Positions 59,335 to 64,000 of a stretch of 64,000 bases of DNA are shown here, piece after piece. The first letter of the stretch is position 1. Each line of letters starts with the position of its first letter. Source of the stretch: an uncultured archaeon (GTDB taxonomy: Archaea > Thermoplasmatota > Thermoplasmata > Thermoplasmatales > Thermoplasmataceae); assembly GCA_000965745.1 (NCBI GenBank), contig CP009479.1:1568001-1632000 (forward strand), in the 5' to 3' direction. The translations under genes and the position numbers were made by a program. The notes under the pieces were generated by a model. It was given only the letters and a program-made list of their open reading frames with translations. It was not told the origin of the DNA and made no database searches.

Positions 59335-59889
59335 CTACTCCAGCAGCCCTATGAGTTCGTCAGCTTCCTGGCGCGTCAGTTCCTTCATGTCCTTGCTAAG
59401 GGTCTGGTTAAGGAAGCGATCTGTAACTGCCCTCCTTTCCTCAGTATTCTGAAGCTCGTTCAGCACTTCGATCTGGTCTATGGTCATGGGGGCATCCAGC
59501 TTTTCCCCCTCGCTCGGGGGCCTCATTGACTTCAGGACAGCTATGAGTTCAGATGCCTCGCTGGAGGAAAGAGAATTTATGGATCTCTTATCCCTCACCT
59601 TAAGGAAGTAGTTCGTATAGTCCCTTCTCTGGGGAGTGTCCTGCAGCTGGTCAATAAAGATCAGTTGTTTTGGTGTCAGATATCTGTCGATCAGAACCTT
59701 TGCTGAAACTCTCTTCAATTCATCTATCAATTGCGACGCCTCCTTCATCGAGAGCCCCTCAATTTCCTCTTTCCCGGTTTTCAGAAGGTACTCACTCACA
59801 TGATCCTTTGCTGCCAGTGACTCTTTCGCAAGCGTGGATATAATGTCGATCTGCCCGTCTGTTGGCGCCATTCTTTTTACCATAACCAT
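59335..59889 (-). CDS. Protein of three tandem ~55-aa T..Q...I..L...L(S/T)..EA.ELI..L modules
   Basis: Internal triplication visible in the translation. Confidence 0.75.
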   Translation of the reverse strand: MVMVKRMAPTDGQIDIISTLAKESLAAKDHVSEYLLKTGKEEIEGLSMKEASQLIDELKRVSAKVLIDRYLTPKQLIFIDQLQDTPQRRDYTNYFLKVRDKRSINSLSSSEASELIAVLKSMRPPSEGEKLDAPMTIDQIEVLNELQNTEERRAVTDRFLNQTLSKDMKELTRQEADELIGLLE

Positions 59890-60073
59890 CTAAACCCCCC
59901 CTTTGGCACATATTGTGGCAGGCATCACACTTGACGATCAGAACATGAATATCCCGATCCTTCCGCATGGACTGCTGCCATGTTAATCATGGATATGCAA
60001 CTATTCTACCTTTACCGCTCAATAAGTAGGTATGGGGTGAGGGTGGCCTGATCTTAACAGGAACGCGCAAGTA

Positions 60074-60122
60074 TTTTATACAGTCAGTTAATCGGCAGGG
60101 AGTGTCATGGTTTGCCATGACA
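60074..60122 (+). promoter_or_regulatory. leu operon promoter: TATA-like TTTTATA and palindrome TGTCATGG-TTTG-CCATGACA
   Basis: TATA at 60074-60080; perfect 8-bp inverted repeat at 60103-60122 at the expected start site. Confidence 0.55.
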
Positions 60123-60147
60123 GATTAGCCATCGGGTGAAGGAAGAA

Positions 60148-60216
60148 ATGTTGACCTTGGTATTGCATGAAGTACTTTTGTTGAACGAGTCAACGCTCTC
60201 ACCCGTGGTTCTGTAA
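60148..60216 (+). CDS. Leucine-rich leader peptide MLTLVLHEVLLLNESTLSPVVL
   Basis: 8 Leu and 4 Val in 22 codons; GGGTGA SD at 60134-60139; ends 21 nt before the leuA GTG. Confidence 0.7.
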   Translation: MLTLVLHEVLLLNESTLSPVVL

Positions 60217-60237
60217 AGAGAATTTTTGGGTGATAGT

Positions 60238-61473
60238 GTGTTTTCTGAAAGTGATAGTGTAAACTATGTTTTATCGAAGGGGCCGGTTCAGAACGTATTC
60301 CGTACGGGTGAATTCCACGACTGGGGGATGGACCTTAAGGATGTGGCAGGGAGGATCAAAATTCTTGACACGACCCTGAGGGATGGCGAGCAGTCTCCCG
60401 GGGTTTCAATATCCGTTCATGAGAAGATCAGAATCGCCAGCCTTCTTGAAAGTGCAGGGGTAGACGTTATAGAAGCAGGCTTTCCCATTGCGTCGGATGC
60501 TGAGAAACATGCAGTTTCCCAGATAAACTCGGTCATCAGCAAATCCGAGGTGTGCGGTCTTGCTAGATGCACAGGGAAAGATATTGAGGCTGTAATGGGA
60601 ACAGGTGTGAAGAGGGTGCATCTTTTCATCGCCACTTCTGACATTCACATGAGGCATAAGCTGAAGATGGACAGAAGCCAGGTTATTGAAAGCATATCAA
60701 AGTCTGTTGACTCTGTTGCATCCAGGGGCGTAAAAGTGGAATTTTCCTGCGAAGACGCAACAAGATCAAATATGGATTTTCTCAAGGAAGCTTTCAAGAC
60801 GGCAAGGGACAGTGGTGCATCAGTCCTCAATATACCAGACACCGTTGGGGCCCTCTCTCCAACGGCCATGATGCATATCGTGAAAGAAATAAGGGGCGCG
60901 ACTTCCACGGAGATAAGCGTCCATTGCCACAATGACTTTGGACTTGCAACCGCAAACACCCTCTTCGGCATAATGGGCGGTGCAACACAGGCTCACGTAA
61001 CCGTAAACGGCATCGGAGAAAGAGCTGGAAACGCATCACTGGAAGAGGTAGTCGTGGGAATCGAGTCATTCCTGTCATCAGGCACCGGCATGAGCAAGGA
61101 GAAGCTCTGGGAACTCTCGAAGGAAGTTTCATCCGTAACGGGCATGGCAGTTCAGCAGAACAAGGCAATTGTAGGTGAGAACGCGTATGCCCACGAGGCC
61201 GGAATACACGTTCATGGGATTGTGAACGAGGTGTCCACCTATGAGCCCATAGATCCTGCGGTGGTTGGAACCGAACGCAGGATAGTTGTTGGGAAGCATT
61301 CCGGGGTAAACTCGATCCGTTGGATTATGGAACGCAATGGAATAGAAGCTGACCTGGAGACTGCCAGGGAAATTCTCCGGGAAGTGAAAAAGATCCGTGA
61401 AGGTGGAACAAGAGTGGACGAGGAAAAAGTTGTCGAAATGTTCCAGGAATACACTAAGATAGGAGGAAACTGA
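60238..61473 (+). CDS. leuA: 2-isopropylmalate synthase (short form, no regulatory domain)
   Basis: DTTLRDGEQ, HCHND.G, GIGERAGN, HEAGIH, GKHSG; GGGTGA-4nt-GTG start. Confidence 0.85.
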   Translation: MFSESDSVNYVLSKGPVQNVFRTGEFHDWGMDLKDVAGRIKILDTTLRDGEQSPGVSISVHEKIRIASLLESAGVDVIEAGFPIASDAEKHAVSQINSVISKSEVCGLARCTGKDIEAVMGTGVKRVHLFIATSDIHMRHKLKMDRSQVIESISKSVDSVASRGVKVEFSCEDATRSNMDFLKEAFKTARDSGASVLNIPDTVGALSPTAMMHIVKEIRGATSTEISVHCHNDFGLATANTLFGIMGGATQAHVTVNGIGERAGNASLEEVVVGIESFLSSGTGMSKEKLWELSKEVSSVTGMAVQQNKAIVGENAYAHEAGIHVHGIVNEVSTYEPIDPAVVGTERRIVVGKHSGVNSIRWIMERNGIEADLETAREILREVKKIREGGTRVDEEKVVEMFQEYTKIGGN

Positions 61474-61486
61474 AATGGGTGATCGT

Positions 61487-62755
61487 ATGGTTCAAACAGG
61501 AAAAACGGCAGTAGAAAAAGTGTTTTCGAAAAAATCGGGGAGAGATGTCAGGGCAGGGAGCATCATAGAGGCGGAAGTTGACTATGTAATGGTGAATGAC
61601 ATAACAGGCCCACCGGCAATGGATGCATTTTCACAGCTGGGAGTGGAGCCTAAAAAGGATAAAATTGTGCTGATACCCGATCATTTTGTCCCGAGCAAGG
61701 ATATAGCCTCTGCCACGCAGTCAAAGAAAATGCGTGATTTTGCATGGAAATATGAGATGCCAAATTATTTTGAAGTCGGCAGGGGCGGAGTGTGCCACCA
61801 GGTAATGATGGAGAAGGGTTTTGCCACTCCCGGTGCTCTCATAGCCGGGGCGGATTCCCACACCTGCACCTATGGGGGACTTGGAGCAATATCCGTGGGG
61901 ATCGGGAGCACAGAAGCAGGCGTAATTTTCGGAACCGGAAAAATGTGGTTCAAGGTGCCCGAAACTGTGAGGTTCGATATAGATGGCCCACTAGATGAAT
62001 CAGTCGAAGGGAAGGACGTGATTCTCAGTGTCATTTCACGCATAGGCCTTGAGGGCGGCAGGTACAAATGTCTCGAGTACCGGGGCTCAGCAATTCAGCA
62101 GCTGGGAATATCTGACAGGATGACCATTGCGAACATGTCATCCGAAGCAGGCGCTAAGTGTGCCTTCATACCTCCTGACCGAAAAACGGAAGCTTATCTG
62201 GAGGGAAGGGCAAGGAACAGTTGGGAATTCATGGATTCCGACATGGATGCAACATACGAACAGATAATTCGCATAGATGCATCAGAGCTCGAACCTGTGG
62301 TATCAATGCCCGGGTCCCCCGCAAATGTGAAGCCTGTATCTGAAGTTGACAGTGAAATAGACCAGGCTTACATCGGGTCATGCACCAACGGCAGGATAGA
62401 GGATATAAGAAGGGCAGCAGCGGTACTGAAGGGCAGGAAAGTACACCCGAGAACAAGGTTGATTGTTGTCCCTTCCAGCCAGCAGGTATTTGAGGATGCA
62501 GTATCGGAAGGGCTTGTAAAGATAATATCTGAAGCAGGAGGGTATGTCTCGGGGCCTACCTGCGGTGCATGCCTCGGAGGTTACATGGGCGTACTCGGCC
62601 CCGGTGAGAAATGCATATCGAGCACGAACAGGAATTTTCTGGGAAGGATGGGGGACAAGGACTCAAGCGTCTATCTCTCTAATCCTTCTGTCGTTGCTGC
62701 AAGTGCAGTTGCAGGCAGGATAATCTCCCCCTCGGAGGTGCTCAAGGTTGCCTGA
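61487..62755 (+). CDS. leuC: 3-isopropylmalate dehydratase large subunit
   Basis: GADSHTCTYG, GSCTNGR, CGACLG, STNRNF.GRMG; GGGTGA-4nt-ATG start. Confidence 0.92.
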   Translation: MVQTGKTAVEKVFSKKSGRDVRAGSIIEAEVDYVMVNDITGPPAMDAFSQLGVEPKKDKIVLIPDHFVPSKDIASATQSKKMRDFAWKYEMPNYFEVGRGGVCHQVMMEKGFATPGALIAGADSHTCTYGGLGAISVGIGSTEAGVIFGTGKMWFKVPETVRFDIDGPLDESVEGKDVILSVISRIGLEGGRYKCLEYRGSAIQQLGISDRMTIANMSSEAGAKCAFIPPDRKTEAYLEGRARNSWEFMDSDMDATYEQIIRIDASELEPVVSMPGSPANVKPVSEVDSEIDQAYIGSCTNGRIEDIRRAAAVLKGRKVHPRTRLIVVPSSQQVFEDAVSEGLVKIISEAGGYVSGPTCGACLGGYMGVLGPGEKCISSTNRNFLGRMGDKDSSVYLSNPSVVAASAVAGRIISPSEVLKVA

Positions 62756-63251
62756 ACACAGAATTAGGGGAAAAGTCTGGATTCTTGGCGACAACGTCGA
62801 CACTGACCAGATCATACCGGCGAGGTACCTGGTAACTGCAGAGCCCGAAAAACTTGCGCCACACTTCATGGAAAATACGATCCCGGGTCTTGCATCGTCC
62901 ATATCCCGCGGCGACATAATTGTAGCCGGCAGGAATTTTGGGTGTGGCTCAAGCAGGGAACATGCCGTGAGGGCCATTCAGGGGTGTGGCGTCAGCCTGG
63001 TAATTGCTAAGAGCTTTGCACGGATATTCTTCAGAAATTCCATTAACCTGGGGCTTCCGGTTATTGAAGCTGATATATCTGTTGTTGAAGGGGCTGAAGT
63101 ATCCGTTGACATGGAAAAAGGGACCATTGCGCATGGTCCGGAAACGACTAAGTTCGAGAAATACCCGGAATTCCTGAAAAAGATAGTGGATAGTGGGAGC
63201 ATCATAAACTATGCCAAGGAGGAGTTGTTACGCCAGCAGTCGCAGTCATAG
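62748..63251 (+). CDS. leuD: 3-isopropylmalate dehydratase small subunit
   Basis: DTDQIIPARYLV, NFGCGSSREHA, SFARIF.RN. Confidence 0.92.
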   Translation: MPEHRIRGKVWILGDNVDTDQIIPARYLVTAEPEKLAPHFMENTIPGLASSISRGDIIVAGRNFGCGSSREHAVRAIQGCGVSLVIAKSFARIFFRNSINLGLPVIEADISVVEGAEVSVDMEKGTIAHGPETTKFEKYPEFLKKIVDSGSIINYAKEELLRQQSQS

Positions 63252-64000
63252 AGGGGGACGGGATTGGCCGTGAGGTGATACCGGCAGCAACTGAATGCAT
63301 AGATCACATCACAGGCGGATCGATTGAATATGTGAAATACGGAGCATCTTCTGAGAGGTATATCCGGGAAAGCACTCTGATAACGGAAAATGAAATGGAA
63401 GAGCTCAGAAAAATGGATGCAATTTTATTCGGGGCGATCGGGGACCCGAGGGTGAAACCCGGAATAATGGAAAGAGGTGTAATTCTCAGGCTAAGAAGAG
63501 AACTTGGCCTTTTTCTGAACCTGCGCCCCGCAAGGTCCCTGCCTTTTTCCAAATTTGACATGAATATTGCCATTGCAAGGGAAAACACTGAAGAGTTTTA
63601 CATGGGTTTCGGGGGAAAGATTGACGAAGGCGGGTCGAAATTCCTGCATAGAAGCAATGCATGGTCCGGTGAGCTAGAAGTTTCAGGCAGTTCTGACGAC
63701 GATTTGTACTTCAATCTCGGGGTAATGAGCAGAAAAAACCTGGAAAGATTTTTCAGAAAGGCCCTGTCATTCAAGCAAGCAAATGAGGGCAAGGGTGTAA
63801 CTGTAGTGGACAAGGCAAATGCTGTAACCGGCCTTTACGAGATCTGGAGGGAAGTGGCCGGAGAAGAACTTGCAAAAGCTGGCATAAAGCCTCATTTCAT
63901 GTATGGGGATGCAGTCGCATATGATCTTGTCATGGACCCTTCAAAATTTGGACTCATCATGGCTTCCAACCTCTATGGGGATATCCTGTCAGATCTCTGT
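63230..64000 (+). CDS. leuB: 3-isopropylmalate dehydrogenase (partial, runs off the window; apparent ACG start)
   Basis: VAVIEGDGIGREV, FGAIGDP, NLRPAR, RENTE, VDKANA, SNLYGDILSDL. Confidence 0.9.

Follow-up and report, generated by a model that had tools for sequence, protein, structure and literature searches.

Can an archaeal ribosome act as a leucine sensor by reading a short ORF ahead of the leucine biosynthesis genes? The amino-acid operons of archaea are thought to be controlled mainly by DNA-binding regulators, and archaeal Ribo-seq papers report upstream ORFs (uORFs) merely as candidates, with no function assigned (PMC7261190, PMC10117724, PMC11456600). The question is raised by the region upstream of leuA in a complete archaeal genome of 2.23 Mb, from which a stretch of 64,000 nucleotides (the window, to which positions refer unless stated otherwise) was analysed. 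The 3ʹ end of the 16S rRNA of the same genome carries the usual anti-Shine-Dalgarno (anti-SD) sequence. An initial annotation of the window had interpreted this region as a candidate leucine-sensing leader peptide that controls leuA, probably by translational attenuation.

The leader is followed on the forward strand by a four-gene operon encoding a leuA-type synthase, leuC, leuD and leuB. The first gene (60238-61473) encodes a short-form 2-isopropylmalate synthase with domains PF00682 and PF22617, in which the allosteric leucine-binding domain (PF08502) is absent. It is followed by leuC, the large subunit of isopropylmalate dehydratase (61475-62755; PF00330, IPMI_arch above cut-off), leuD, the small subunit (62748-63251; LEUD_arch above cut-off), and leuB, isopropylmalate dehydrogenase (63275-64000; PF00180), which runs past the window edge and ends at genome position 1632300. 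LeuA itself scored below every NCBIfam cut-off, with LEU1_arch as the best model; its assignment to leucine therefore rests on the operon, on the approximately 50% identity to the long-form LeuA proteins of the class, which do have PF08502, and on the leader itself. For a LeuA without the allosteric domain, control of synthesis could be the main leucine feedback. The repetition of the leuA SD-to-start spacing at leuC, pointed out in the initial annotation, held as sequence (GGGTGA 61477-61482, 4 nt, ATG 61487), yet the ATG at 61475 has a GGAGG of its own.

An orthologous leuA is present in 18 of the 103 genomes of the family, in six genera, so the leu operon is patchy within the family; with two additional contigs, 20 loci were available for comparison. 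In all 20, an N-terminal extension of 31-43 residues ahead of the catalytic domain was stop-free and in frame, an SD occupied the equivalent position before the in-frame leuA start, and substitutions within the extension were commonest at third codon positions. GTG 60238 is thus the likely leuA start. The later starts chosen by some gene callers (ATG 60328 or GTG 60343) were rejected, as neither is preceded by a canonical SD and no locus has a stop in the extension. This amounts to an annotation correction: gene callers often put the LeuA start about 30 codons too late, and overlook the leader. We also noticed a 5-bp hairpin with a purine-rich tetraloop within LeuA codons 8-12 (60259-60272), kept in the five leaders closest to each other (that of the window included), the conservation of which may be at the protein level. 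On the other side of the leader, a divergent gene of 184 aa (59335-59889, minus strand) has short internal repeats and no Pfam match; it adjoins the leader in one relative and not in another.

The uORF (60148-60216, forward strand) has the same length in five of five close relatives. It comprises 22 codons, of which eight encode Leu (five of them TTG, with a Leu run at codons 10-12) and four encode Val. The probability of at least eight Leu in 21 codons was P = 3.5e-4, and that of TTG for five of the eight Leu codons was P = 2e-4. Its own SD, GGGTGA (60134-60139), lies 8 nt 5ʹ of the ATG, compared with a genome mode of 4-6 nt. These coordinates and this composition confirmed the initial annotation. 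A BRE/TATA promoter is located at 60069-60082 on the same strand (TATA box 60075-60082), with an invariant TTTATAC in all five close leaders; transcription is predicted to start at 60104-60107.

The predicted transcript begins with an 8-bp RNA hairpin (60103-60122, forward strand), for which 97.5% of cells were paired in the five leaders. The hairpin buries an out-of-frame AUG at 60107 (a 10-codon ORF ending at 60139) and is restricted to the subgroup of leaders with an SD-led uORF. The fixed spacing of this palindrome suggested a DNA operator; this is disfavoured, because no second perfect copy was found in the genome, hence no regulon of copies, and three of the four changes in the hairpin are G-U wobbles. 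We likewise rejected the possibility that translation starts leaderless at ATG 60107 and feeds into the Leu ORF, as that ATG is in frame in just one of the five close leaders.

A bacterial-type promoter and terminator scan of the leader returned nothing, no Rfam match was obtained at E up to 10, none reached the gathering score in 11 loci, and the uORF peptide had no Pfam match. In a blind genome-wide uORF scan the uORF ranked about 29th of 257, i.e. it was not singled out, and the fold of the whole region was unremarkable (z = -1.36). The case therefore rests on conservation and on the match between the codons and the product of the operon.

A uORF with a Leu cluster precedes leuA in all 18 family genomes having the gene and in both additional contigs. 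Across the 20 loci it is 15-24 codons long, ends 21-42 nt 5ʹ of the leuA start, and contains two to four clustered Leu codons at positions 9-17. A strict filter required a TATA- or SD-led ORF of 8-40 codons with three Leu within five. It was passed by 15 of the 20 leaders, by none of 18 synthase paralogues and, in the same genome, by 39 of 2033 genes (1.9%); in the five leaders that failed, there is a Leu pair, the cluster is spread out or the contig is cut. Fourteen uORFs start 30-31 nt past the first base of the TATA box, which is the leaderless position, and one further leader is cut by the contig end. In the five closest leaders the uORF is SD-led behind a leader of 41-44 nt, and that of the window starts 73 nt from the TATA box.

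Although these five leaders differ by 15-20 substitutions in the first 14 uORF codons, the length, the frame and the Leu pair at codons 11-12 are retained with synonymous swaps and without any stop or frameshift. Under random substitution, only 4-8% of the trials for each sequence retained both the frame and the Leu pair. Synonymous changes, two-base ones included, have left Leu in place, and the Leu-Leu pair of the putative sensor (Leu codons 10-12, 60175-60183, forward strand) aligns family-wide while passing between TTG, TTA and CTT. The alignment, in which the stop codon of the genus g3 uORFs corresponds to a Ser codon in the uORF of the window, shows that the family leaders are one ancestral element. 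The position of the stop is free with respect to the downstream pairing segment described below (it can precede that segment, fall within it or lie in the loop), while the distance from the Leu cluster to the anti-SD stem on its 3ʹ side is held at 7-11 nt. This indicates that the conserved feature is a stall site and not termination of the uORF. It should be noted that all conservation and covariation counts include related sequences, which are not independent events.

Such conservation bears on the idea that the uORF encodes a small hydrophobic peptide acting in trans, or that the arrangement arose by chance. The peptide is indeed hydrophobic; however, its sequence and length (15-24 aa) are unconserved outside the Leu cluster, it lacks a Pfam match, and the position before leuA is conserved together with covarying helices, so this explanation is highly unlikely. 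A metagenome scan yielded only distant LeuA relatives, about 50% identical, and two of the 75 had a Leu uORF. Leu-run uORFs precede leuA-like genes on two unassigned metagenome contigs, L054 (about 285 nt 5ʹ of the catalytic start) and L031 (about 240 nt).

The secondary structure of the leader can be described by three segments on the forward strand. Segment A (60120-60159) includes the uORF SD, spacer and first codons; segment B (60189-60212) carries the anti-SD at 60199-60205; and segment C (60219-60239) consists of a U5 tract (60223-60227), the leuA SD (60228-60233) and the start. Sequence comparison shows that B can pair alternatively with A, i.e. the uORF start region, or with C. The B:C helices (60193-60197 with 60235-60239, 60199-60205 with 60227-60233, and 60207-60212 with 60219-60224) correspond to the predicted OFF state, and A, as the anti-anti-SD, to the ON state. 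The A:B helices pair 60128-60131 with 60206-60209, 60133-60139 with 60199-60205, 60141-60142 with 60196-60197, and 60149-60155 with 60189-60195, with a duplex energy of -30.6 kcal/mol. The outer A:B helix leaves a loop of about 26-33 nt that contains the Leu run (in the genome of the window and in relative G098).

Both folds had been anticipated in the initial annotation. The pairing of 60193-60212 with 60219-60239, in which the loop contains the uORF stop and the stem contains the leuA SD, held, as did the alternative pairs 60133-60139 with 60199-60205 and 60150-60155 with 60189-60194, which turned out to be parts of a longer helix. A third partner at 60304-60311 was also proposed; it is present in the sequence, but it lies within the coding sequence and is lost in four of five relatives, and we rejected it as a part of the system.

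Pair-by-pair examination of 12 representative leaders found both duplexes available in every one. In genera g3 and g20, 89% of A:B cells were paired, against 30-48% for slid controls, and four of 13 pairs covaried, with eight cells changed on both sides; none of 500 shuffles matched this. The B:C helix was paired in 100% of cells in the same genera, with one double change, and little variation is expected of an SD. In G098 the A:B duplex forms a near-perfect 27-bp helix, and a single substitution in B is accompanied by matching ones in both the uORF SD and the leuA SD. Of the start regions of 483 SD-led genes, none pairs with B as well as A does. Just three of these 483 ribosome-binding-site windows, a set which may include leuA's own, equal that of leuA in pairing with B. 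For the leader of the window, A:B and B:C are near-equal in energy, and which of them is the minimum depends on where transcription is assumed to start. Thus the comparison of leuA upstream regions proposed in the initial annotation was passed: the Leu-rich uORF, the two exclusive helices and compensatory changes are conserved in every family member with the gene.

A two-state RNA could also be switched by a protein or another ligand, or could constitutively damp or couple leuA translation, with the Leu codons being a by-product of U-rich pairing. The Leu cluster is indeed U-rich and partly paired in the inner helix, and a protein has been proposed for the actinobacterial LEU element (PMC1262725). 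Against this, Leu is kept through synonymous and even two-base changes with the frame open in all leaders, the ilv and aro leaders described below are rich in their own amino acids, and the GC-rich relatives in the class use runs of CTG, CTT and CTC. We consider this explanation very unlikely.

The effect of a ribosome on the competition between A:B and B:C was modelled. The archaeal footprint determined by Ribo-seq in Haloferax is 27 nt, with 12 nt before and 15 nt after the P site (PMC7261190). Each leader was folded at equilibrium with a 27-nt footprint as a hard mask. With a ribosome initiating on the uORF, the predicted cost of opening the leuA SD was 6.2-13.7 kcal/mol in 19 of the 20 leaders; with the ribosome on a cluster Leu codon (the first one in most loci), the cost fell to 0.9-5.0 kcal/mol, and it was 5.7-12.0 kcal/mol at the same codon when A was scrambled (19 of 20 in each case). 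The sole misfit was G011, with 8.4 kcal/mol at its first Leu. The trend was the same at 50 C and under other masks. These results agree with the logic claimed in the initial annotation, for which such constrained folding had been suggested, namely that a stall at Leu opens the leuA SD.

The shape of the predicted response differed between the subgroups. In the leaderless group the cost was high over codons 2-10, dipped at codons 12-14 and then rose. The ON window is narrow, two or three codons, and at the last cluster Leu the model reverts to B:C in most leaders. In the subgroup of the window the SD is predicted to be open from about codon 4 on, so that the contrast there is between initiation and elongation and not between Leu and neighbouring codons. 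The model disregards ribosome bulk and sterics, kinetics and queuing, and pairing around the ribosome is assumed. When applied to the ilvB leaders and to most class-level leuA leaders, it gave no clear SD switch.

Direct masking, as in the mycobacterial poly-Cys leaders, could be considered instead, the anti-SD being physically covered by a ribosome that stalls at Leu17 or Leu22. Both residues are invariant in the five close leaders, and a ribosome placed there opens the SD in the model. However, Leu17 and Leu22 lie in the doubly paired segment B, so that an RNA constraint explains their invariance, and in 15 of the 20 leaders the anti-SD and the sequence 3ʹ of it are free of Leu codons of the uORF, which in 12 of these 15 ends before the anti-SD. 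Direct masking is therefore, in our view, very unlikely. With the conserved Leu cluster upstream of the anti-SD, the stalled ribosome probably frees the SD by A:B closure and not by covering the anti-SD.

The favoured model of A:B closure would work as follows. When leucine is plentiful, ribosomes would load repeatedly on the uORF, and an initiating or early-elongating ribosome would cover A. B would then fold onto the leuA SD (OFF), a fold that would keep the uORF start open for the next ribosome. When Leu-tRNA is scarce, the ribosome would pause on the Leu cluster, roughly one footprint beyond the start, with A clear of its rear and B just ahead; A:B would close around the parked ribosome, blocking reloading and freeing the leuA SD (ON). 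Since B is transcribed before C, A:B would be favoured in the parked state. More speculatively, the untranslated U4 tracts beside the SD could, in the OFF state, let the termination factor aCPSF1 end the transcript, and control would then extend to leuC, leuD and leuB; failing this, the three genes would follow leuA by translational coupling.

We regard leucine-dependent, ribosome-mediated control of leuA as very likely, with the reservation that the leucine response, translation of the uORF and the transcription start are inferred and there are no expression data. The specific translational mechanism, with the ribosome inside the A:B loop, is predicted by the model and inferred from sequence comparison and folding, again without expression data, and we favour it by a modest margin only. 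The initial interpretation as a Leu-sensing translational attenuator was thus supported, leucine responsiveness remaining an inference, and was refined with regard to the route of SD release, the third partner and the U tracts.

The U tracts deserve separate consideration. The initial annotation had found no U-rich terminator, which held for the bacterial type; two conserved U4-5 tracts flanking the SD, matching the published aCPSF1 signal, were overlooked, and a transcriptional output is therefore not excluded. The second tract (60241-60244, forward strand) is conserved, directly 3ʹ of the B:C stem, and forms Phe codon 2 of LeuA. Of the 20 leaders, 19 have a U4 tract (U4-6) just 5ʹ of the SD and 18 have one just 3ʹ of it, the two flanking tracts falling within about 22 nt; only one of 483 SD-led genes of the same genome has U4 tracts on both sides of its SD. 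The minimal aCPSF1 element is two U4 tracts in at least 18 nt, with no hairpin required (PMC8716108), and aCPSF1 is encoded in the genome. The tracts may make the OFF state polar on leuC, leuD and leuB or may even be the primary switch, which the sequence alone cannot decide.

In its strongest form, this alternative keeps the leucine-sensing uORF and makes transcription termination the main output, with the U4-6 tracts as an aCPSF1/FttA signal shielded by the stalled ribosome or its fold and with SD pairing as secondary. It would account for the paired tracts, rare elsewhere in the genome and fitting the minimal element, and for the upstream tract being kept even where it is in an unpaired loop and in the GC-rich class relatives. 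The ilvB leaders combine a hairpin and a U tract without strong SD pairing, and termination would control the whole operon directly. On the other hand, B:C is fully paired in g3 and g20 and always includes the SD core, one leader (G011) is missing the upstream tract, and B:C would be a poor antiterminator, as it masks neither the downstream tract nor, in g3 and g20, the upstream one. We consider termination as the main output unlikely and retain the translational model, with release of the SD by A:B closure.

In comparison to known systems, the enterobacterial leu attenuator (leuL, and likewise trpL, hisL, pheL and ilvL/ivbL) shares a short leader ORF with codons for the end product before a biosynthetic operon, and mutually exclusive helices set by ribosome position (summarized in 10.1101/834739); the archaeal case is computational only. 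In contrast to leuL, the archaeal leader has three segments instead of four, with no fourth segment conserved; its OFF fold buries an SD, and there is no intrinsic hairpin-plus-U terminator and no antiterminator. In the prediction, a stalled ribosome lets a helix form around it instead of blocking segment 1. The promoter is archaeal, the uORFs are mostly leaderless as judged by the TATA spacing, and Rfam gives no match.

The actinobacterial LEU element (Seliverstov et al. 2005, PMC1262725) is similar in having a Leu-run leader before leuA, alternative structures, an SD in a stem and no terminator. In LEU, however, it is the Leu run that forms the pairs with the SD, and a pseudoknot has been proposed, whereas the archaeal anti-SD is separate, lies 3ʹ of the Leu cluster in all family leaders examined, starting 7-11 nt after it, and competes with the uORF 5ʹ region. 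The class-level long-form leuA leaders look closer to LEU, as their Leu codons overlap the anti-SD. Mutation of Leu codons in the LEU element reportedly does not behave as attenuation predicts (PMC1262725). In the mycobacterial leaderless sORF attenuators with poly-Cys tracts (Canestrari et al., 10.1101/834739), stalling frees a downstream SD, as predicted for the archaeal leader, several operons are controlled alike, and the default sequestration of the downstream SD has a predicted counterpart in B:C. Their leaderless uORFs are paralleled by inference only: 14 relatives have a TATA spacing of 30-31 nt that points to leaderless initiation, whereas the uORF of the window is SD-led behind its 41-44-nt leader. 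They differ in sensing Cys and not Leu and in that the anti-SD is the codon tract itself, subject to direct masking, whereas the archaeal sensor tract is not the anti-SD.

The leuA-Halobacteria RNA motif (Rfam RF03001) is a curated conserved RNA of 53 positions named for archaeal leuA, and is the likeliest place for archaeal prior art; its Leu uORF content is undetermined. Its covariance model gave no match in the genome and none in 10 related loci, with Haloferax volcanii matching as positive control, and no usable halobacterial leuA leader locus was found in plasmid records. The claim that such a leader is essentially uncharacterised in archaea met no contradiction, as no report of archaeal leader-peptide attenuation was found in the literature searched, motif names included, most subscription papers being outside its scope. 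Inferred from sequence and folding, the leader probably behaves like bacterial leader-peptide attenuation, most like the translational actinobacterial versions, while failing a defining feature of each. Its predicted in-loop geometry is unmatched among the attenuators described in the literature searched.

Other operons also carry leader ORFs with cognate codons. Upstream of ilvB-ilvC, a leaderless uORF of 23-24 codons with an Ile/Val/Leu tail occurs in five genomes (four of four in the genus, and G098); in the same genome as the window it has 24 codons (L161:182-256, genome 304281-304355) and is followed by a conserved hairpin, a U tract and an SD. SD sequestration in the ilvB leader is weak in the model, so termination is possible as its mode. 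Two genomes of the same genus, G001 and G003 (95% and 88% complete), keep ilvB with its leader, and the query used found no orthologous leuA in them. In genera g3, g19 and g20 (L170-L182), ilvB has a distinct leader with an ORF of 6-10 codons, mostly SD-led, about 100-160 nt 5ʹ of the start; its single Ile codon lies right before the stop within a nearly invariant 22-nt motif, which may be a one-codon Ile sensor or a protein-binding site.

The chorismate mutase-DAHP synthase (aro) operon is preceded by a 42-47-codon uORF with a Phe/Tyr-rich tail in four of four genomes of this genus only (L162:95-235, genome about 1233094-1233234), ending just before the chorismate mutase SD; in other genera the aro operon starts leaderless. 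No cognate uORF was found before trpB, argG or hom, and hisG was not found in the same genome, which is 99% complete. The trp and arg operons are leaderless (genome, after trpB 2202832 and argG 2035380).

Among 24 long-form leuA loci from other families of the class, 20 (L129, L131, L132, L134-L143, L145-L151) have SD-led uORFs that terminate in Leu runs. These uORFs have 19-22 codons, with up to nine Leu in two runs, about 230-250 nt 5ʹ of the LeuA catalytic start; at L136 the last Leu run pairs with the SD region of the uORF itself. At three others of the 24 (L130, L133 and L144), the uORF before the leuA-like gene has a run of Ile codons in place of the Leu run, which suggests that they could be citramalate synthases under isoleucine control.

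A bolder reading would be that Thermoplasmata gauge Leu, Ile/Val and Phe/Tyr by ribosome-read leader ORFs, with the in-loop geometry of the leu leader combined with aCPSF1 termination at the U tracts to enforce the OFF state over the operon; at present we lean slightly against accepting it in full. As the leader is conserved, short and mutable, it offers a way to test whether archaeal ribosomes sense amino acids, and whether conditional gene control makes use of transcription-translation coupling and of aCPSF1 termination.
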